A DNA stretch of 64,000 bases from Anaerolineaceae bacterium (GCA_040772785.1 JAXGXM010000008.1:6344-70343), one strand, 5' to 3'. Shown: positions 2,654 through 44,368, counted from the stretch's first letter. The notes: generated by a model not told the origin, from the sequence alone. A program made the numbers and translations.

Positions 2654-3103
2654 TTAGAGGTCGATAACCTGCTGCCCGGGTAATTTTTTGGTTTCTTCCC
2701 AGATCTGAAATTTTTCCAGGTCGCCGCGGATCTGTCGTAGAACGAAAACCAGCACAGCCGCATCGTCAATAAGCCCGGCAACCGGGATCCAATCCAGCAC
2801 AAGGTCGATCGGAGACACAAAATAGAGCACAGCACCGGTAACCATTGCGATCGAAGCCCATGGAATAATTGTGTATTCTTTGTTGATGTAGGCTTTCAGC
2901 ATACGGATAAACGCTTTAAGCTGAGACCAGAAATCTTTGCTGATCTTGGAGCCCGGTTCGCGTTCGTTTGCCTTTTTTACTGCCTCTTCAACGAGAATAC
3001 GGGATTTTTCGGGGTCGTGAAGGTACTCTTCAGCCCTGGTTTTACTGCGGTTGACTGCCTCGTTTATCTTCTTTTCAGAAGGCGTAAATAGATTCTCGCT
3101 CAT
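2654..3103 (-). CDS. DUF1232 (YkvA-like) membrane protein
   Basis: Characteristic segment YFVSPIDLVLDWIPVAGLIDDAAVLVFVL. Its start overlaps the stop of the upstream 2H gene by 4 nt. Confidence 0.7.
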   Translation of the reverse strand: MSENLFTPSEKKINEAVNRSKTRAEEYLHDPEKSRILVEEAVKKANEREPGSKISKDFWSQLKAFIRMLKAYINKEYTIIPWASIAMVTGAVLYFVSPIDLVLDWIPVAGLIDDAAVLVFVLRQIRGDLEKFQIWEETKKLPGQQVIDL

Positions 3104-3669
3104 TTTTTCTCTTTCTTTAGGTCATAATTCCCAAGGTATTCGATCGGTCGAAAGCCGACCACGCTGAGTTGCGTGAACTCACCATCAATGGGGATGAAGT
3201 TTTCTTTAAATATCCCCACCGAGCGGCACAATTCCTCCCGGGCGAGGTTGAATTCGAGCGTCAGGTGCGGCACCCATTTACCGGGGGAGTAGTATGGTGA
3301 GGATTCCAGACCGCTGCGTTTTAAACTTTCGTGAAGCCGTGCGTGCACTTCAAGCAATTTGGGGCTGGGAACGGGGTAGAGGAACAGCACATTATCAGAG
3401 GTGGGGAACGTGCCGACTGCTCCCAGGCGGAATTCAAAAGCGGTAAGTGTAGGCGCGAATTCTTCTGTTAACTTTTGTAATTTTTGACCATCCACTTTTG
3501 GAAAAACAGCCAGGCTGATGTGGGGTTTGTCGTTCATCAATCCCTGTACCGGCTGCACACCTTCCCGGTAGATGATGTCTCTGAAGGCCAGTACTTTTTT
3601 TTCAGCTTCCGCGTCGAGGAAAAGCTCAATGGCAAATCCCTCGGTGATGCTCTTGTGGTTATTGTTCAA
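3100..3669 (-). CDS. 2H phosphoesterase superfamily protein (LigT / 2'-5' RNA ligase / cyclic phosphodiesterase-like)
   Basis: Two H-x-[ST]-x motifs at the expected spacing: KPHISLAV and VPHLTLEF. Length is 189 aa. Confidence 0.7.
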   Translation of the reverse strand: MNNNHKSITEGFAIELFLDAEAEKKVLAFRDIIYREGVQPVQGLMNDKPHISLAVFPKVDGQKLQKLTEEFAPTLTAFEFRLGAVGTFPTSDNVLFLYPVPSPKLLEVHARLHESLKRSGLESSPYYSPGKWVPHLTLEFNLAREELCRSVGIFKENFIPIDGEFTQLSVVGFRPIEYLGNYDLKKEKK

Positions 3670-3784
3670 TCATTCCTCTTTTTCTCTTTTGTCAATAAAT
3701 ATATTTTACCATCCACTGGATGAACAAAAATGGCCCCGGACGCGATTCCAGGACCATCATTGACATACAATCAGTTACCTGTCT

Positions 3785-5113
3785 CTACTTTCGCGTTTGA
3801 ACCTTCTCCATGTATTCTTTGATGGTTGGCATTCCTGCCAATCTCTCATAGAAGAAATTGTTGACGATATTGATCACCATTGCACGGGCTGCTTCTGCTT
3901 CAGCGGTGAACTGGTTGCGGGCTTCCGGCTGGGCGAGCGCGGTGCGTAAATTCAGCAGGTGTTTCACAATTTCGGTTTCTGCATCACCCTCAAGCGCGCG
4001 TATCACTTCCAGGATAAGATTATCTGTTGAAGCCACCATTTGCTCGTTTGTGATGGAGGATCCCGGGATATACGCATCATCGATTGTGCGGATTAGCGAC
4101 CAGATCTGGTAAAGGATGGTTGCCGGTTCATCGAACAGCTCGCGCAGGAACGCCGCCTCTTCGTATTTTCCGGTAAGGCGGAAGATGTTATACATGCGTT
4201 TGGCTACTTTGCCGTAGTTGACATCCTTGGTAAGGTACTTTAATACTTCGCGTTCGAGCGCACTGACGTAATCATCCAATGCATCAGAGGATACGTGCTG
4301 AGACAGCTTAGAGAAAATGGGAACTGATGAAATTTCCAGGTAGACCTCCTGGAAATAGGGATCAAGGAACCCATCCAGTGGTGTGATCTCACCGTCAGGA
4401 GCTTCCCACGTGGCGTCCAGCATGTTGCTGGCATTGGCGAGCTGTTTACGGACCGGATCCGCCACAACCCAATCGAGCTTGCACCAACCGGGATTGTACT
4501 TAACTTCATCCCAACTGACTTCGATCTTTTCACCTTCTTTAGTGAATCCATCGATCTTGCCTGCTTGTATTTCAGCAGGGTGCCAGGAGACGGGAGACCC
4601 GGCGCGAACCTCGCGATCACCGATCACGATGTCCCTGGGATGTTCTCCAAATTTCACTTCGATCAGCTGATAGTTTGGACCCTGTACGTATTTGAGGGCT
4701 TTTTCCCGCATAATGCTCCCCAGAATTTCGCAGGCTTCCTCTCTTGAAGGCGCGATAATATTGATACGTTCAAAGTAATCACAGTCACCGGGATAGGACT
4801 GTATCTTCGATTGGGCGGAGGAACCGGAAAGCGCCAGAGCGGTTTCAACTTTTCCCGGAACATCCTCAAATTCCACTATCTTACCGATGCGCTTGAAATA
4901 ATCCAGGTCTTTGTCGCTGAAGTCCAGCATGGTGATGTTGTGCCCGAACACACCAGAGCGGGTGTCCATGGAGATCTGGCTGCTACCCTTGTAAGCTGCC
5001 ATACTGGTGAGCCATTGCAGAGCCTCTTCTTCACCAACCTCGATACCAAGTCGTTTGGCTGACTCCATGATCCGGTTTAGATCCTCTTGCTTTGCTTCAC
5101 CCGTTTGTGTCAT
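3785..5113 (-). CDS. Hypothetical protein with Pol-beta-type nucleotidyltransferase-like motif and helical C-terminal domain
   Basis: LSGSS-x10-GDCDYFERINII (aa 95-120, nt ~4778-4825) fits hG[GS]-x9-13-DhDh. A downstream beta-strand acidic residue (QLIEVKFG or KLDWVVADP) could be the third carboxylate. The C-terminal ~150 aa is helical. No family was recognised with certainty. Confidence 0.35.
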   Translation of the reverse strand: MTQTGEAKQEDLNRIMESAKRLGIEVGEEEALQWLTSMAAYKGSSQISMDTRSGVFGHNITMLDFSDKDLDYFKRIGKIVEFEDVPGKVETALALSGSSAQSKIQSYPGDCDYFERINIIAPSREEACEILGSIMREKALKYVQGPNYQLIEVKFGEHPRDIVIGDREVRAGSPVSWHPAEIQAGKIDGFTKEGEKIEVSWDEVKYNPGWCKLDWVVADPVRKQLANASNMLDATWEAPDGEITPLDGFLDPYFQEVYLEISSVPIFSKLSQHVSSDALDDYVSALEREVLKYLTKDVNYGKVAKRMYNIFRLTGKYEEAAFLRELFDEPATILYQIWSLIRTIDDAYIPGSSITNEQMVASTDNLILEVIRALEGDAETEIVKHLLNLRTALAQPEARNQFTAEAEAARAMVINIVNNFFYERLAGMPTIKEYMEKVQTRK

Positions 5114-5162
5114 GATTCCTCCTTATTTATGATAAAAAAGGTCTACATTACAAATCAGTATA

Positions 5163-5190
5163 ACAAAAAATGACCCGAAAAGGTCATTTA
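5163..5190 (-). terminator. Weak candidate terminator overlapping the exonuclease stop codon
   Basis: On the minus strand the sequence reads ATGACC-TTTTCG-GGTCAT followed by TTTTTTGTTA. The stem is only 6 bp. Confidence 0.35.
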
Positions 5191-5745
5191 TTTTTGTGAT
5201 TTGTATTTCGGGTTTAGGTCGAGAATCCGGCGAAAGATTTCAGCCTGGTCCTGGGCGTCGCGCAGCGCGTTGTGGGTGAGCCGCCTGTTGTCAAGAAAAC
5301 GCTTTGAGACGAATTTCATGGAGGTGTCAGACCACTCAACGCCCTGCTGTCCCATAAAGTATGCCTTGATGTCCAGCGCGCTATGCCCGAACGGGTTCTC
5401 TCCCAGGTACCGGTGGAAGTAGTCGTTGATGAACATCCAGTCAAATGGTGCGTTAAACGCAACGAAAACCGGTCTCGCGCCCTCCGGTACAACCGCGCGG
5501 ATCCAATCGACGAAGGCGACCAGCGCTGCTTCTGGTTCCAGCCCATTCTTGCGCAGGTCGTCCATATTCAATCCGGTGATTGATAACGCCTCATCCTGCG
5601 ACTCATCACGGTCTGGTTTGAGTTCTACATAAAATGTGTTGGTAGGGTCCATGACCAGGCAAGCTCCGATCGTGAGCATGGCATATTTATCCGGGATCGG
5701 ACCAGCGGTTTCAACATCAACGGAGATGAAAATTTCTTCGGTCAT
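5188..5745 (-). CDS. DEDDh 3'-5' exonuclease (DnaQ/RNase T-like)
   Basis: Exo I is ISVDVETAG, Exo II is AFNAPFDWMF, and Exo III is HNALRDAQ (H-x4-D). Confidence 0.75.
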   Translation of the reverse strand: MTEEIFISVDVETAGPIPDKYAMLTIGACLVMDPTNTFYVELKPDRDESQDEALSITGLNMDDLRKNGLEPEAALVAFVDWIRAVVPEGARPVFVAFNAPFDWMFINDYFHRYLGENPFGHSALDIKAYFMGQQGVEWSDTSMKFVSKRFLDNRRLTHNALRDAQDQAEIFRRILDLNPKYKSQK

Positions 5746-5775: not shown

Positions 5776-6297
5776 TCAATCATCAAGGGGATCTTTGAAA
5801 ATTTTAATCCGGTATTTATCAGTTTCAGTCACCGTCTCCTGTTCAGAGGCAACCCGGTAGAATTTTCCCAATCCTGCCCAACTGCAAAATTCCTGCACGA
5901 AACCCGCCAGGTAGTCGCTTTGGAGAGACGCGCTTCCCGGTTGGGGATTGACCTCAATGATCCAGTGACTTTTCAGATTTTCCAGCTGGATGGGGATGCT
6001 TTTCTCCATGCTTATTTTTTCGCAGATTGAATTGAGCCCAAGCGCGATTTTCTTTTTTACCGGCGAGAAGCGAAAAGCGGGCTCATCCCAACCCAGCATC
6101 TCGCGATGCTTTTCATGCCAGTGGTAAAACCCCGCTCTCCCCGCGCGATGGAGTGTGCCGCGAACCAGCAGATCTACCGGCTTTTCAGCCAGGCTTACCT
6201 TAAACTCGGTCGCCTTTTCTTCACCCAGGATGTCCACCAGGCTGAGGGTTTCGTAATCGGAATTTAAATTGCTTTGGAGTATTCCGTTCATCAACAA
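5776..6297 (-). CDS. Hypothetical protein (173 aa) co-oriented with the small GTPase
   Basis: Only a 9-nt gap separates it from the upstream GTPase gene. No confident motif was found; a V4R-like fold is only a guess. Confidence 0.4.
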   Translation of the reverse strand: MLMNGILQSNLNSDYETLSLVDILGEEKATEFKVSLAEKPVDLLVRGTLHRAGRAGFYHWHEKHREMLGWDEPAFRFSPVKKKIALGLNSICEKISMEKSIPIQLENLKSHWIIEVNPQPGSASLQSDYLAGFVQEFCSWAGLGKFYRVASEQETVTETDKYRIKIFKDPLDD

Positions 6298-6306
6298 TGC
6301 CCGGGT

Positions 6307-6867
6307 TTACGGCTGCCCCTGTTCAGATTCTTTGCGGTCCATTTCTTCGAGGATGCTGTAAAGCAGCTCAAGCAACACATTTTTTACTGAGCTTTTCTTT
6401 GTCGCCTCGCAAGTGAGAATCTTAACGGAAGGATCGAGCCTTAATGCCAGGCGCATATCCTCCACGTCCCAGGCGTCGTAAAGGTCCTGTTTATTGGCTG
6501 CTACCAGGTAGGGCGTGGGCGCGTAGGCGTGGAAGGTTTCAAGAATGCTGCGGGCTTCGCGGAACGTCTCTGGTCGGGTGCTATCCACCATAACAATAAA
6601 GCCCAGCATACCTTCCGAGAGGATCTCCCACATGAAGTCGAATCGTTTCTGCCCGGGTGTGCCAAAAAGAAATAACACAAGATCGTTGTCAACAGTGATC
6701 CTGCCAAAATCCATGGCCACCGTGGTGGTTTCTTTCACCTTTTCCGGCGCATAAGTGATCTTGCGCTCAGTGGATACAACGTCAATTTCACTGACTGATC
6801 GAATGAATTCCGTTTTCCCCGCATTGAAAGGCCCTGTTATTACAATTTTTACCGTCTGGGTCTGCAT
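6307..6867 (-). CDS. Ras-like small GTPase (MglA/CvnD-type ATP/GTP-binding protein)
   Basis: P-loop GPFNAGKT, switch II FGTPGQ, and NKQD specificity motif. Length is 186 aa. Confidence 0.75.
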   Translation of the reverse strand: MQTQTVKIVITGPFNAGKTEFIRSVSEIDVVSTERKITYAPEKVKETTTVAMDFGRITVDNDLVLFLFGTPGQKRFDFMWEILSEGMLGFIVMVDSTRPETFREARSILETFHAYAPTPYLVAANKQDLYDAWDVEDMRLALRLDPSVKILTCEATKKSSVKNVLLELLYSILEEMDRKESEQGQP

Positions 6868-6887: not shown

Positions 6888-7703
6888 TCAGATCGAGCGA
6901 ATGCGGTCGATCAGGCGTTTGATCAAGGGGCGATTCTCTTTGGGTTTATTGACCGGCAGTGATTGCCCGGGCAGCGCGACAGGCAGACCGTCCGGACGAA
7001 TGATCTCCACTAAACCAGCCTGCAGAAGCGTGTAGACCACGCGCCGGATTTCAATCTCATCGAGTTTCGTGGTCGCGGCGATCTGCCCGATGGTGTTCTT
7101 GGGGTTCACGTACGAGATGACGCGCCACTCAGTTGAGTTGAGGTTGATCTTGCGGATATCCGTACCGGGGCGTTCAGTGAATTTTAGCGCCATTTCAAGG
7201 CTGGGGATTTCCGCTTTTAGCTCCTCGATCTCCTGCAATTCCCGCGCGCCTTCAACGATCAGGTTGGATAGGTCAAGCCTGACCGGGATGCGATCTTCCG
7301 GAGAAATTTCGCCTGTTTCGAAACGGAAGAAACCATCGTCCCAGGTAAAGACGGGGCGCAAGTGGTCCGCGTATTCTTTTTCCAGTACCTCAAGCACCTG
7401 ATCAAGCGTTGCATAGCCGGCGTTCACCAGGTAGATGCCGATTTCCCGCTCGCTCTGATCTGCCAGCCGTTCCCGCAGCAGCCGGTGTTGTGATGCGGTG
7501 ATGAGCTGGTGATCGGTGAGGATCTTCAGCAGCGAGGGTTTTTCCTCGCTGGATTCAAAGTAGGTGAGTTTGCCGTTCTGAAACACTGCTCTGGCATAGA
7601 GACCGGGTTTCTCCACGTAAAGCGCGCCGGACTTATTCGCCAGGTTTATCAGGTTGAGCAATTGGGTGAATGTAAAATCCTTAAGATTACCTTTTAATGT
7701 CAT
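6888..7703 (-). CDS. DUF4388 (PATAN-like) domain protein
   Basis: The N-terminal GNLKDFTFTQLLNLINLANKSGALYV is the typical DUF4388 opening. The gene lies upstream of the small GTPase, as in known DUF4388-GTPase pairs. Confidence 0.65.
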   Translation of the reverse strand: MTLKGNLKDFTFTQLLNLINLANKSGALYVEKPGLYARAVFQNGKLTYFESSEEKPSLLKILTDHQLITASQHRLLRERLADQSEREIGIYLVNAGYATLDQVLEVLEKEYADHLRPVFTWDDGFFRFETGEISPEDRIPVRLDLSNLIVEGARELQEIEELKAEIPSLEMALKFTERPGTDIRKINLNSTEWRVISYVNPKNTIGQIAATTKLDEIEIRRVVYTLLQAGLVEIIRPDGLPVALPGQSLPVNKPKENRPLIKRLIDRIRSI

Positions 7704-7847
7704 CCGCCAACCCTTAGGGGATATCTTGCATTCATAAAATTATACATCAAGACAGCTTCACGTCAATTAATCATTTGGTTAAGCCGGGGGCGTTCGTTAA
7801 TCAAGTTTAGTATAATCTCTTTGGGAAAAACACACACAAGGAATACC

Positions 7848-9482
7848 ATGCCGCCCATCAAATCCGCTTTAGCCAAGTATGATCTCGATTTATTACAACG
7901 CATCGCCAGAGCCTGGGATGTGGAGATCAGCCAGCGGGATGCTTCCACTGCCAGGGTAGACCTGGCAGCCAGGATGGCAGAGAAGGATCTTTTTAAGTCA
8001 CTGATCGATGAATTACCCGAAGAAGTTAAAAATGCCTGGCTGGACCTGGCGGGCATGGGGGGGCGCCAGTCCTGGTCTGAATTTTCGCGGCTGTACGGGA
8101 CGATTCGCGATTTGGGTCCAGTCGCGCGCGAACGCGAAAATCCGGATCTAAAACCGGTTTCAATTTCTGAATCCTTATTTTATTCCGGGTTGATAGGGAG
8201 GGCTTTTTTCAGAGGTACAGGTGAACCGGTGGAGCACGCGTACATCCCCGATGAAATTCTTGGATTTTACGACAAACCTGCCGCCAGCAGGCTTCGATCA
8301 AGCATCCGGCCGGCTGTTAACCAAACCCCGCGCTTCATCGTAAGGGCTGATAACGCCATCCTGGATCAGTTGACTGATCTTCTGGCTGCCTGCAGGATGG
8401 GTCAATCATTATCGCAGTCTGTTTTCACCACCTGGGGAAAACCGCAACAATTTATGGAATCGCTGCTCATTTCAGCGGGAATTCTGGCCCCGGATGGGCA
8501 GCCTGGTGCGGACGCGCTGAAGCTTTTTTTCAACGCGGATCGGGATACAGGACTGCACCAGCTTTTCAAGGCCTGGTTTGATTCACGAGAGATCAATGAA
8601 CTCCGGATGCTGCCCGGATTGATATGTGAGGGTAACTGGCAGAATGACCCGGTTATGCCGCGCAAACTGGTGGCAGATCTTATCAGCGGGCTGGAGACGG
8701 GAACCTGGTGGAGCATCTCCTCGCTTCTCGCAACCGTGAAGGATACCAACCCTGATTTTCAGCGCCCGGCTGGTGATTATGACTCATGGTTCATCCGGGA
8801 GGAGAAAAGCAGCAAGTATCTCACTGGTTTCTCATCATGGGAACGGGTGGAAGGAGCTTTGCTCTATTACCTGCTCACCGGTCCAATGCACTGGCTGGGA
8901 TTGATCAACCTCGCCCGTGGCAGCAATGAAGGCAGGTTCACCGCGTTCCAGCTGGTGTCGCAAACCCGGCGAATGCTGCAGGGTGATTCTCCAATTACGG
9001 GGCAGAAAGAAAATAAACCTCTACAGATCAGGAATGTGCGCGTTGTGGTGTTACCGGTGGGAGCTTCGCGAGTGCTGCGCTACCAGGCGGGTAGATTCTG
9101 TGAACTCAACAGTGTCAGTCTGAAGGATTCGAGGTACCTGTTGACTGTGGCTTCGCTGACGAGAGCAGCTGATCAGGGATTGCAAATTCAGCAGCTGCTG
9201 CAGCTCCTCGAAAAAGAACAACCCGGGGTGGTGCCGGCTGAATTGCAGCGTCTGGCAGAACGTTGGAGCCGCAACGGTGTTGAAGCCGGCTTTGAGCAGG
9301 TCACGATATTACGGTTCAAGGATCAGGCGGGCTGTGATCAATTTGTAAAAGCTGCCGGTGGAAGATTTAATCTTGAGGTGTTGAACCCGCTTGTGGTATC
9401 GATCAAACCCTCGCAGCAGGAGGGGATCGTCCGCATGCTTGGAGAGATGGGCATTTTGGTGGAAACCGGAGCAGATGTATAA
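7848..9482 (+). CDS. Hypothetical 544-aa protein, possible XPB/Ssl2 N-terminal-like (helicase-associated) repeats
   Basis: I prefer the ATG at 7848, which follows AAGGA, over the TTG at 7821. The C-terminal segment (ILRFKDQAGCDQFVKAAGG..LNPLVVSI..IVRMLGEMGI) resembles helicase-associated domains. This is weak. Confidence 0.35.
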   Translation: MPPIKSALAKYDLDLLQRIARAWDVEISQRDASTARVDLAARMAEKDLFKSLIDELPEEVKNAWLDLAGMGGRQSWSEFSRLYGTIRDLGPVARERENPDLKPVSISESLFYSGLIGRAFFRGTGEPVEHAYIPDEILGFYDKPAASRLRSSIRPAVNQTPRFIVRADNAILDQLTDLLAACRMGQSLSQSVFTTWGKPQQFMESLLISAGILAPDGQPGADALKLFFNADRDTGLHQLFKAWFDSREINELRMLPGLICEGNWQNDPVMPRKLVADLISGLETGTWWSISSLLATVKDTNPDFQRPAGDYDSWFIREEKSSKYLTGFSSWERVEGALLYYLLTGPMHWLGLINLARGSNEGRFTAFQLVSQTRRMLQGDSPITGQKENKPLQIRNVRVVVLPVGASRVLRYQAGRFCELNSVSLKDSRYLLTVASLTRAADQGLQIQQLLQLLEKEQPGVVPAELQRLAERWSRNGVEAGFEQVTILRFKDQAGCDQFVKAAGGRFNLEVLNPLVVSIKPSQQEGIVRMLGEMGILVETGADV

Positions 9483-42011: not shown

Positions 42012-42608
42012 AATAATGATATAATTTGCATCGTCACTGGGGCCCGTAGCTTCGAAGATCCCTGTGGGACAAGTGGTTAGAGCGCAAATAGAATTAGGAA
42101 TAATTAATGTTGCCTGCAGGAATTTCCTTTGCAGGTTTACTTTTTAATAATGATATAATTTGCATCGTCACTGGGGCCCGTAGCTTCGAAGATCCCCTGT
42201 AGGGACAAGTGGTTAGAGCGCAAATAGAATTAGGAATAATTAATGTTGCCTGCAGGAATTTCCTTTGCAGGTTTACTTTTTAATAATGATATAATTTGCA
42301 TCGTCACTGGGGCCCGTAGCTTCGAAGATCCCCTGTAGGGACAAGTGGTTAGAGCGCAAATAGAATTAGGAATAATTAATGTTGCCTGCAGGAATTTCCT
42401 TTGCAGGTTTACTTTTTAATAATGATATAATTTGCATCGTCACTGGGGCCCGTAGCTTCGAAGATCCCCTGTAGGGACAAGTGGTTAGAGCGCAAATAGA
42501 ATTAGGAATAATTAATGTTGCCTGCAGGAATTTCCTTTGCAGGTTTACTTTTTAATAATGATATAATTTGCATCGTCACTGGGGCCCGTAGCTCAGTGGT
42601 TAGAGCGC
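42012..42608 (+). repeat. Tandem array: four full copies (134, 136, 136, 136 bp) plus a fifth partial copy of a promoter + interrupted tRNA 5'-half + hairpin unit, merging into the intact tRNA-Met
   Basis: Units start at 42012, 42146, 42282, 42418 and 42554. Copies 2-4 look identical by eye. Copy 1 differs by two indels (CCCTGTGGG vs CCCCTGTAGGG). Confidence 0.9.
42559..42567 (+). promoter_or_regulatory. Extended -10 promoter element TGATATAAT for tRNA-Met (also present in every repeat unit)
   Basis: The TGnTATAAT consensus lies 14 nt upstream of the tRNA 5' end. Copies are also at 42017, 42151, 42287 and 42423. Confidence 0.5.
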
Positions 42609-42654
42609 GCGGCTCATAACCGCTTGGTCGCAGGTTCGATCCCTGCCGGGCCCA
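42582..42654 (+). tRNA. tRNA with CAU anticodon (elongator Met, or Ile2 if lysidinylated); CCA not fully encoded
   Basis: Hand-folded cloverleaf. Acceptor GGGCCCG/CGGGCCC, D stem GCTC/GAGC, anticodon loop CTCATAA, T arm GCAGG-TTCGATC-CCTGC, discriminator A. It lacks the three G-C pairs of an initiator anticodon stem. Confidence 0.85.
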
Positions 42655-44292: not shown

Positions 44293-44368
44293 GCCGAGAT
44301 AGCTCAGTTGGTAGAGCACACGACTGAAAATTGTGGGGTCGCCAGTCCGATCCTGGCTCTCGGCACCA
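44293..44368 (+). tRNA. tRNA-Phe (GAA), CCA encoded
   Basis: GCCGAGA-TA-GCTC-AGTTGGTA-GAGC-A-CACGA-CTGAAAA-TTGTG-GGGTC-GCCAG-TCCGATC-CTGGC-TCTCGGC-A-CCA. Confidence 0.95.

Follow-up and report, generated by a model that had tools for sequence, protein, structure and literature searches.

In a 64,000-nucleotide stretch of DNA from an uncultured Anaerolineaceae bacterium (GCA_040772785.1, JAXGXM010000008.1:6344-70343), whose full length is referred to here as the window, four adjoining genes on the minus strand encode, in order, a DEDDh exonuclease, a 442-residue protein with a nucleotidyltransferase (NTase) fold, a 2H phosphoesterase and a DUF1232 membrane protein. The robust unit among them is the exonuclease together with the NTase, put together within the Anaerolineae. 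The NTase, judged from its predicted structure, is an enzyme of an unannotated Chloroflexota family which resembles the giant-virus protein Mg662 and is not a CD-NTase, and the exonuclease belongs by homology to the Cap18 family of the cyclic oligonucleotide-based antiphage signalling systems (CBASS). The function proposed for the pair, to which a nearly even chance is given, is that a nucleotide product containing a 2'-5' bond is made by the NTase and degraded by the Cap18-like exonuclease. The layout of the four co-oriented open reading frames had been described in a first-pass annotation made from the sequence alone and was borne out; four genes with these coordinates are also found in the public annotation of contigs identical to it. 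The same annotation had suggested a module composed of a synthase, a degrading enzyme and a membrane partner; a synthase with a degrader is still the most plausible reading, with the part of the degrader passing from the 2H phosphoesterase to the exonuclease.

The 442-residue protein and its fold

The gene of the 442-residue protein (3785-5113, minus strand) represents a large family. Single-sequence searches of Pfam, NCBIfam, PADLOC, PHROGs and the PDB sequences, the last also searched with a profile of 74 sequences, returned no usable match; FadR and JetA were considered as identities and set aside, as their matches were at noise level only. The family counts 6105 proteins at an expectation value (E) ≤ 0.001 in a protein database clustered at 90% and 558 clusters at 50% identity, and among the 120 matches listed a precomputed Pfam domain is present in one, an exonuclease fusion. 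At least 591 GTDB species genomes encode a copy 62-86% identical to the window protein, the nearest species locus having an NTase 86% identical. Labelled matches come mostly from Anaerolineae and other Chloroflexota, including Thermomicrobiales, and two records are labelled Armatimonadota. The family may extend beyond the Chloroflexota, possibly to eukaryotes or their viruses: in P0247 (1291 residues) the NTase module is C-terminal, behind eukaryote-style F-box-associated, AbfB, C-type lectin and PLAT domains, and in P0169 (1067 residues) it is also C-terminal, behind a PQQ/BamB-like beta-propeller.

The structure was modelled with AlphaFold2 on an alignment (A4) of 74 diverse homologues, down to 27% identity. 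This model replaced a first one, built on 35 close homologues, with a disordered active-site loop (predicted local distance difference test, pLDDT, 71). The final model (pLDDT 88.8; predicted template modelling score 0.86) consists of an N-terminal helical and hairpin extension (residues 1-65), a Pol-beta-type core (about 67-245) and an all-helical C-terminal lobe (261-440), the last confirming the helical domain that had been noticed from the sequence. The core elements follow in the order helix 67-80, strand 89-95, short helix 97-100, strand 110-120, helix 124-141 and strand 148-157, with the GS motif at the end of strand 89-95 and D110 and D112 at the start of strand 110-120. This order (alpha-beta-alpha-beta-alpha-beta) and the placement of GS, as hG[GS] closing strand 1, and of DxD, as [DE]h[DE]h on strand 2, are the pattern of the Pol-beta NTase superfamily, to which the protein belongs at the level of the fold.

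The GS-x11-DCD motif on which the NTase call was originally founded lies at 4778-4825 (minus strand) as described and corresponds to the catalytic signature G97-S98-x11-D110-x-D112, in which x is C111. It is no chance match, because G97, S98, D110 and D112 are invariant in the 74 homologues. The same holds for E115, R116, G156, K212, D233 and W236 in all 74, and also for D247, D251, Q255, Y258, K302, R306, Y308, N309 and R312. Two candidates exist for the third metal-binding carboxylate, both encoded within 4415-4660 (minus strand). E152 (codon 4658-4660) occupies the canonical strand-3 position, on the strand that succeeds helix 3, where 68 of the 74 sequences have E or D, whereas D233 (codon 4415-4417) is D in all of them. 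In the helical lobe, the invariant basic and aromatic motif K302-x3-R306-x-Y308-N309-x2-R312 (4178-4210, minus strand) is a candidate binding site for the phosphates of nucleoside triphosphates (NTPs), likened to the C-lobe Lys/Arg residues of OAS/cGAS-class enzymes.

An AlphaFold and Foldseek check of the protein had been suggested, and it recovered an NTase fold. With the model, the Mg662-type match and the invariant GS/DxD residues, the NTase call holds. Against the PDB, Foldseek gave three significant matches only, namely 4xul, 4ams and 4amq (E 4e-6 to 4e-5, probability 1.00), which form the "new nucleotidyl transferase" group of Megaviridae, 4xul being Mg662 with GTP; the first model had yielded the same result. 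Against BFVD, the matches were uncharacterised proteins of virophages, mimiviruses and pithoviruses (E 3e-13 to 3e-6). Mg662 of Megavirus chilensis with its related entry (4xul, 4ams, 4amq) and the 442-residue protein are all bilobal, with an NTase core and a helical lobe, and superimpose with template modelling (TM) scores of 0.57-0.61 on target length. However, the sequences are 12-16% identical with no sequence-level match, and the bacterial protein is enlarged by an additional N-terminal segment and by a beta-rich insertion. As Mg662 has no known product or partner, the match fixes the fold and not the function. The next PDB matches were non-significant (E 0.04-0.3) and comprised FAM46C and FAM46A, DncV, OAS1, CdnB, MiD51, CdnE and cGAS-type bilobal enzymes; unrelated proteins, CorA and kinesin among them, were scattered between these. 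Aminoglycoside/lincosamide NTases, AbiEii/MenT toxin NTases and CCA/PAP enzymes were rejected as identities, none being found among the top 50 Foldseek matches.

Membership of the CD-NTase/OAS group, to which the motif had likewise been related, is not supported by any sequence test. No Pfam model matched the protein at E ≤ 0.01, including SMODS (PF18144), Mab-21 and OAS; the PADLOC cyclase models gave nothing at E ≤ 1; and alignment of the family profile with four CBASS cyclases by hhalign gave a probability of 0.2%. A genuine CBASS cyclase, used as a control, matched SMODS in the same scan. The 442-residue protein has in common with CD-NTases, cGAS and OAS1 the Pol-beta GS...DxD signature followed by a helical lobe and, in the logic proposed here, a synthase opposed by a 2'-5' phosphodiesterase. 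It differs from them in having no SMODS, Mab-21, OAS or PADLOC cyclase match and no adjoining effector.

The Cap18-family exonuclease and its linkage to the NTase

The exonuclease gene (5188-5745, minus strand) encodes 185 residues with a match to Pfam RNase_T (PF00929, E 1.5e-10). Far stronger is the full-length match to PADLOC model PDLC00753, an "Effector" by name and an "Exonuclease" by description (E 3.6e-73, 243 bits). The protein also aligns over residues 3-182, ungapped and with about 55% identity, to PDB entry 7t2s (E 6e-51), which is listed as a 3'-5' exonuclease and matches the Cap18 crystal structure from E. coli upec-117 that is cited in bioRxiv 10.1101/2025.03.04.641389. The canonical DEDDh nucleases lie further away (RNase T, E 1.5e-6; PolC exonuclease, E 6e-5). 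As far as sequence can place it, the window exonuclease is thus nearer to CBASS Exo/Cap18 than to the canonical DEDDh nucleases and is a member of the Cap18 family.

It has been reported in a preprint that CBASS Exo homologues show no detectable nuclease activity on single- or double-stranded DNA or RNA and that three of them selectively hydrolyse 2'-5'-linked dinucleotides and 2',5'-oligoadenylate (2-5A) (bioRxiv 10.1101/2025.03.04.641389). Catalysis uses F120, N97 and the DEDDh centre, with contacts to the 2'-5' substrate, and Exo thresholds cGAS-like synthases by destroying the released 2'-5' intermediate (same preprint). The name Cap18 was given to the protein in a study where it was dispensable for phage protection (NAR 2022, PMC9122588).

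The residues concerned are well kept in the Anaerolineae. The catalytic residues of the window exonuclease are D10, E12, D102, H158 and D163, and the substrate-contact equivalents are P16, N98 and F119, corresponding to P15, N97 and F120 of VcExo. Among 66 Anaerolineae copies, D10, E12, D102 and N98 are present in every one, H158, D163 and F119 in 65, and P16 in 64. Compared with the CBASS copies they reach 37-56% identity, a range comparable to the 53-75% found between one CBASS copy and another. The window protein therefore has the same DEDDh and P, N and F positions as Cap18/Exo of E. coli upec-117, V. cholerae and S. marcescens, and in both settings the gene adjoins a nucleotidyltransferase gene. 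The differences lie in the partner, which in the window is not a CD-NTase and is not accompanied by HORMA/TRIP13, E1/E2/JAB, effector or Cap19 genes, and in the location, a housekeeping setting on a Chloroflexota chromosome as opposed to the plasmids and defence islands of Proteobacteria.

Homologues of the exonuclease, mostly annotated as 3'-5' exonuclease, were found by tblastn on 97 plasmids, with 36-53% identity among the 55 matches listed. Five of the seven plasmid loci inspected are in CBASS operons (45-53% identity). Three of these are of type III, two with a phosphorylase, a CBASS cyclase, HORMA, a TRIP13-like ATPase and the exonuclease, and one on a Bradyrhizobium plasmid with no cyclase annotated; the other two are of type II, with SAVED, nucleotidyltransferase, ThiF, JAB and exonuclease genes adjoining. 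The remaining loci are a stand-alone copy and a degraded one. No CBASS genes surround the exonuclease in the window or in 80 related loci.

These 80 loci (NTase identity 62-86%), each from a different GTDB species among the at least 591, were surveyed over 6 kb on either side. Such a neighbourhood comparison had been advised in the first-pass annotation; it upheld the co-occurrence of the exonuclease with the NTase (67/80) and failed to uphold that of the 2H and DUF1232 genes (19/80). In the 67 loci the exonuclease gene is directly upstream of the NTase gene and co-oriented, and two more loci have no upstream sequence. The two genes are separated by a median of about 78 nt, and in 17 loci by ≤ 22 nt. 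What flanks the pair varies, with 30 distinct gene clusters upstream and 31 downstream, among them the genes for dnaG, rpoD, glycyl-tRNA synthetase and NAD synthetase. Because the adjacency persists while the flanking genes and the 2H-DUF1232 genes change, the exonuclease and the NTase are regarded as a unit.

Effectors of the SAVED, TIR, patatin, transmembrane, nuclease and phosphorylase kinds were found in none of the 80 loci within the 6 kb covered, in line with the earlier remark that no canonical CBASS or OAS effector is visible. Relatives of the NTase were looked for on plasmids and viral contigs and none was found. The description of the genes as a defence-like cassette did not stand, since the setting is chromosomal, with housekeeping neighbours, and is not a defence island.

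A search for a conserved third gene returned a single recurrent and tightly coupled downstream gene, DUF3786 (PF12654, E 4e-43; at 3117-3794 in L032), in 11 loci (L032, L043, L047, L056, L065, L070, L073-L076 and L079), where it starts from 23 nt inside to 25 nt past the NTase stop. An operon of exonuclease, NTase and DUF3786, the last a domain without known function, is thereby suggested for one subclade. As a third partner or effector of the pair DUF3786 was rejected, 11 loci being too few and the domain uninformative. Zinc-ribbon proteins were seen at some loci. In L082 and L084, with distant NTase homologues, a divergent zinc-ribbon (DZR) protein with a long acidic low-complexity linker is found alongside, and in L039 a DZR protein is directly upstream of the NTase. 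A convergent protein of 181-182 residues lies downstream in L081 and L084; L081, L082 and L084 are Thermomicrobiales and unlabelled metagenome loci.

The 2H-DUF1232 genes, transcription signals and neighbours

The 2H phosphoesterase gene (3100-3669, minus strand) has a TTG start and encodes 189 residues with a match to PF13563 (2_5_RNA_ligase2, E 3.1e-16). The HISL (H50) and HLTL (H135) motifs reported for it are present and kept in all relatives. With its two H-x-[ST]-x motifs and PF13563, the protein is of the LigT/ThpR type of the 2H superfamily, and its family profile best matches PDB entries 2d4g (YjcG), 2fyh and 1vdx (PH0099). It is below the NCBIfam equivalog cut-offs, scoring 27 bits against the ThpR model TIGR02258, whose cut-off is 65.7. 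The DUF1232 protein (2654-3103, minus strand; 149 residues) matches PF06803 (E 3.6e-12; 46.3 bits versus a cut-off of 23), and, as had been noted, its start and the stop of the 2H gene share 4 nt (3100-3103). The window 2H protein thus has the motifs and the profile of LigT, ThpR and YjcG and differs from them by its coupling to a DUF1232 membrane protein, a combination for which no described function was found in the literature.

The 2H gene, the DUF1232 gene and a gene for a 125-residue lipoprotein-like protein adjoin the NTase only in the 19 closest of the 80 loci, all at an NTase identity of 70% or more. Their contexts were mapped with a metagenome scan seeded with the 2H family. A DUF1232 gene comes after every 2H gene of ≥ 43% identity for which downstream sequence is present, L108 being the one exception, and 2H homologues at ≤ 40% identity have neither partner. 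In L121 the 2H-DUF1232 genes occur without NTase or exonuclease in 4.4 kb upstream, in the company of a YdcZ exporter, a phospholipase C-like gene and a pullulanase; in L117 a 3.1-kb insertion separates the NTase and 2H genes. A YdcZ-type DMT exporter (PF04657) is directly upstream of 2H-DUF1232 in both L117 (4489-6010) and L121 (3951-5478). A cluster of open reading frames of 160-174 residues lies just downstream of the NTase, between it and the 2H gene, in L011, L014, L015, L017 and L019; judged by position, it is likely a YdcZ-type exporter as in L117 and L121. The travelling block thus appears to be [YdcZ]-2H-DUF1232-(125-residue lipoprotein-like gene), independent of the NTase.

The 2H and DUF1232 genes look like a separate, translationally coupled pair which adjoins the NTase only in this lineage, since they occur without the NTase (L121), at a distance of 3.1 kb from it (L117), and linked to it in 19 of 80 loci only. 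Two roles assigned to them in the first-pass annotation were consequently abandoned. The 2H enzyme had been cast as the degrading enzyme of the NTase product, and the conserved partner is instead the exonuclease (67/80 versus 19/80); DUF1232 had been cast as the membrane partner of the NTase, and it goes with the 2H gene. The DUF1232 protein was also compared with CBASS Cap19, the three-transmembrane protein that comes after Cap18, and the identity was rejected (BLASTP E 2.4 against the proteins after the exonuclease on plasmids); the proteins after the exonuclease on CBASS plasmids have a weak 8xMP match.

A hairpin and the 115-nt gap between the NTase and 2H genes had been given as a caution that the four genes might be split into separate transcripts, and the signals found are in keeping with it. 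A terminator-like hairpin of 9 pairs with a T-run (5168-5189, minus strand) begins within the exonuclease stop codon; a comparable hairpin is present in 3 of 53 related exonuclease-NTase intergenic regions and is thus not conserved. A second terminator-like hairpin, of 12 pairs with a T-run (3729-3758, minus strand), follows the NTase gene and would separate its transcript from the 2H-DUF1232 genes. An extended -10 promoter-like element, TGTTATACT (5157-5165, minus strand), precedes the NTase ATG by about 45-50 nt. Of the 22 closest species loci (L001-L022), 17 have the pattern TGnTATACT at 47-57 nt before the start of the NTase gene, compared with a mean of 0.7 loci in shuffled controls of all 79 loci. 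The pattern is missing from genomes further away, in which only a short gap separates exonuclease and NTase. This element and the hairpin after the exonuclease gene suggest that the NTase would have its own promoter in the clade of the window, and gaps of 8-22 nt or overlaps suggest co-transcription of the two genes in distant genomes.

Upstream of the exonuclease, on the same minus strand, are the genes of a DUF4388/PatA_N protein (6888-7703), of a small Ras/Arf-like GTPase (6307-6867) and of p173, a 173-residue protein of no family (5776-6297), past which the exonuclease gene starts after 30 nt. These three genes accompany the pair in only 7-10 of the 80 loci. A strong sigma-70-like site, TTGACG-16-TATAAT (11 of 12 positions; 7739-7766, minus strand), precedes the DUF4388-GTPase operon, from which the exonuclease may be read. 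A 553-residue protein encoded at 7821-9482 on the plus strand, divergent from this operon, is kept in the 10 closest loci and has a weak, sub-threshold Helicase_C_3 match (E 4e-4). Elsewhere in the window, a zinc-ribbon protein of 241 residues is encoded at 1241-1966, about 700 nt past the DUF1232 gene. At the Rfam gathering threshold the sole matches in the 64 kb are two tRNA genes (42582-42654 and 44293-44365, plus strand).

Proposed function and alternative readings

In the proposed mechanism, the GS/DxD site of the NTase would join NTPs into a small linear or cyclic oligonucleotide. The product, or an intermediate released during its synthesis, would carry at least one 2'-5' phosphodiester bond. 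The exonuclease would hydrolyse these 2'-5'-linked species, thereby setting a threshold or ensuring turnover of the signal in the manner of Cap18/Exo in CBASS, and the receptor or effector would be encoded away from the pair. The proposal starts from the fold class, the conserved catalytic and substrate-contact residues, the family membership of the exonuclease and the conserved adjacency, from which NTase catalysis, 2'-5' chemistry and a signalling role are inferred. The pair resembles a resident signalling circuit more closely than it does a mobile abortive-infection system, because its context is housekeeping, its inheritance apparently vertical, NTase relatives were found on neither plasmids nor viral contigs and no effector adjoins it.

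Several observations weigh against this proposal. The exonuclease is missing in 11 of 78 evaluable Anaerolineae loci, and four distant NTase homologues found by tblastn (34-38% identity; two from Thermomicrobiales and two on unlabelled metagenome contigs) have no exonuclease nearby; the NTase can therefore work alone. A predicted fusion of the two proteins, P0070 (663 residues), is present in one record, reads through the intergenic region into the normal NTase Met and may be real or an artefact of assembly or gene calling, so that it is weak evidence for the linkage. With the hairpin and the promoter-like element between them, the two genes probably have separate transcripts in the window. 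For the exonuclease, 2'-5' specificity is carried over by homology, at 37-56% identity, from enzymes described in a preprint, and the Anaerolineae copies differ from the CBASS ones at two conserved positions: residue 121 is H in 65 of 66 Anaerolineae copies and I or F in the four CBASS copies compared, and residue 52 is E or D in 63 of 66 and A or K in the same four. In VcExo the acidic residues D49 and E51 bind the guanine base (bioRxiv 10.1101/2025.03.04.641389); given their nearness to position 52, the base preference of the Anaerolineae exonuclease may differ. On the side of the NTase, the structural matches to OAS/cGAS-class enzymes are not significant (E ≥ 0.04, TM about 0.2), no receptor or effector gene consistently adjoins it in the 80 loci, and literature searches gave no biochemistry and no functional paper on its family or on Mg662. 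They likewise gave no description of the NTase family and no Cap18 homologue paired with a non-CD-NTase.

The main alternative, judged unlikely, is the maintenance of RNA 3' ends. Here the NTase would add tails to RNA, in the manner of TENT, poly(A) or CCA-adding enzymes, and the exonuclease would trim them, just as RNase T trims opposite the CCA-adding enzyme. In the lineage of the window, where the LigT-type 2H protein would open 2',3'-cyclic phosphate ends, the genes would make up a small end-healing cassette. This alternative draws on the TENT5 poly(A) polymerases FAM46C and FAM46A, which are among the best Foldseek matches other than Mg662 (E 0.04-0.06), on the matches of the exonuclease to RNase T (E 1.5e-6) and Pfam RNase_T, on the LigT/ThpR/YjcG RNA 2',3'-cyclic phosphodiesterase type of the 2H protein, and on the dnaG, rpoD and glycyl-tRNA synthetase genes of the housekeeping context. 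However, the exonuclease is far nearer to Cap18 (E 6e-51) than to RNase T, the Cap18 homologues that were tested are inactive on single- and double-stranded DNA or RNA, linkage of the 2H gene to the pair is not conserved (19/80), and structures of CCA-adding enzymes and PAP are absent from the top 50 Foldseek matches.

It is improbable that the four genes act as the single cassette originally envisaged, with the NTase as synthase, the 2H protein as degrader, DUF1232 as membrane partner or effector and the exonuclease as an accessory. All four are co-oriented and adjoining not only in the window but also in 19 related species genomes and on many metagenome contigs. Some 2H enzymes are 2',5'-phosphodiesterases, and it is a striking coincidence that a single NTase has next to it members of two families able to cleave 2'-5' bonds. 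Nevertheless, the linkage to 2H is gone at NTase identities of about 72% or less, whereas that to the exonuclease persists down to 62%. The unit is further broken by L121, which has no NTase or exonuclease, by the 3.1 kb in L117, by the small conserved open reading frame between the genes in several genomes and by the 12-pair terminator-like hairpin between the NTase and 2H genes. Moreover, the 2H protein is closest to YjcG/LigT and not to known 2-5A or cyclic-nucleotide phosphodiesterases, and DUF1232 is unrelated to Cap19.

A CBASS-like anti-phage system, in which a non-canonical cyclase would sense infection, Cap18 would suppress the background and a remote effector would kill or arrest the cell, has a chance that is slighter still. 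The exonuclease does belong to the family of a CBASS accessory, and the structural relatives of the NTase, being giant-virus and virophage proteins only, hint at a history of virus-host conflict. Against this, no effector, HORMA/TRIP13 or E1/E2/JAB gene adjoins the pair and no PADLOC cyclase model matches. In addition, the housekeeping neighbours and the presence of the NTase in at least 591 species genomes at 62-86% identity form a vertical pattern unlike that of patchy defence islands, and plasmids and viral contigs gave no NTase relatives. Least probable of all, and very unlikely, is an inherited synteny of two genes with unrelated jobs, which would accord with the sampled distant homologues and the 11 of 78 loci without exonuclease and with the separate promoter and terminator signals in the window, but not with a pair that is retained in at least 30 different surroundings on either side while the outer neighbours (2H, DUF1232, GTPase and DUF4388) are lost within the closest 7-19 genomes, nor with a gap of ≤ 22 nt in 17 loci.

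Of the readings considered, the synthase and exonuclease pair with a 2'-5'-linked product is preferred. A more far-reaching form of it, possible though doubtful, is that the 442-residue protein belongs to a new family of second-messenger synthases, allied to Mg662 and unrelated in sequence to CD-NTases, GGDEF, DAC and CRISPR polymerases, which would produce a 2'-5'-linked, vertically inherited signal of the Anaerolineae kept in check by a Cap18-type exonuclease. The design of a synthase opposed by a dedicated phosphodiesterase is known; new are the synthase family, the pairing and the housekeeping setting. The 2H and DUF1232 proteins, which would otherwise misdirect experiments, are left out of the model.

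The Cap18/Exo family is here tied to a wholly different, unannotated NTase family, which becomes a concrete candidate for a class of nucleotide-signal synthases. The Mg662-type NTases of giant viruses and virophages, whose structures are solved and which have remained orphans in function, thereby receive a first lead as to their role; if the far-reaching form is true, these viral enzymes would gain a testable function. It would also mean that 2'-5' signalling and control by surveillance of intermediates exist outside CBASS and OAS immunity, and the pair gives a hint that 2'-5' nucleotide chemistry may have a place in ordinary bacterial physiology and not only in immunity.

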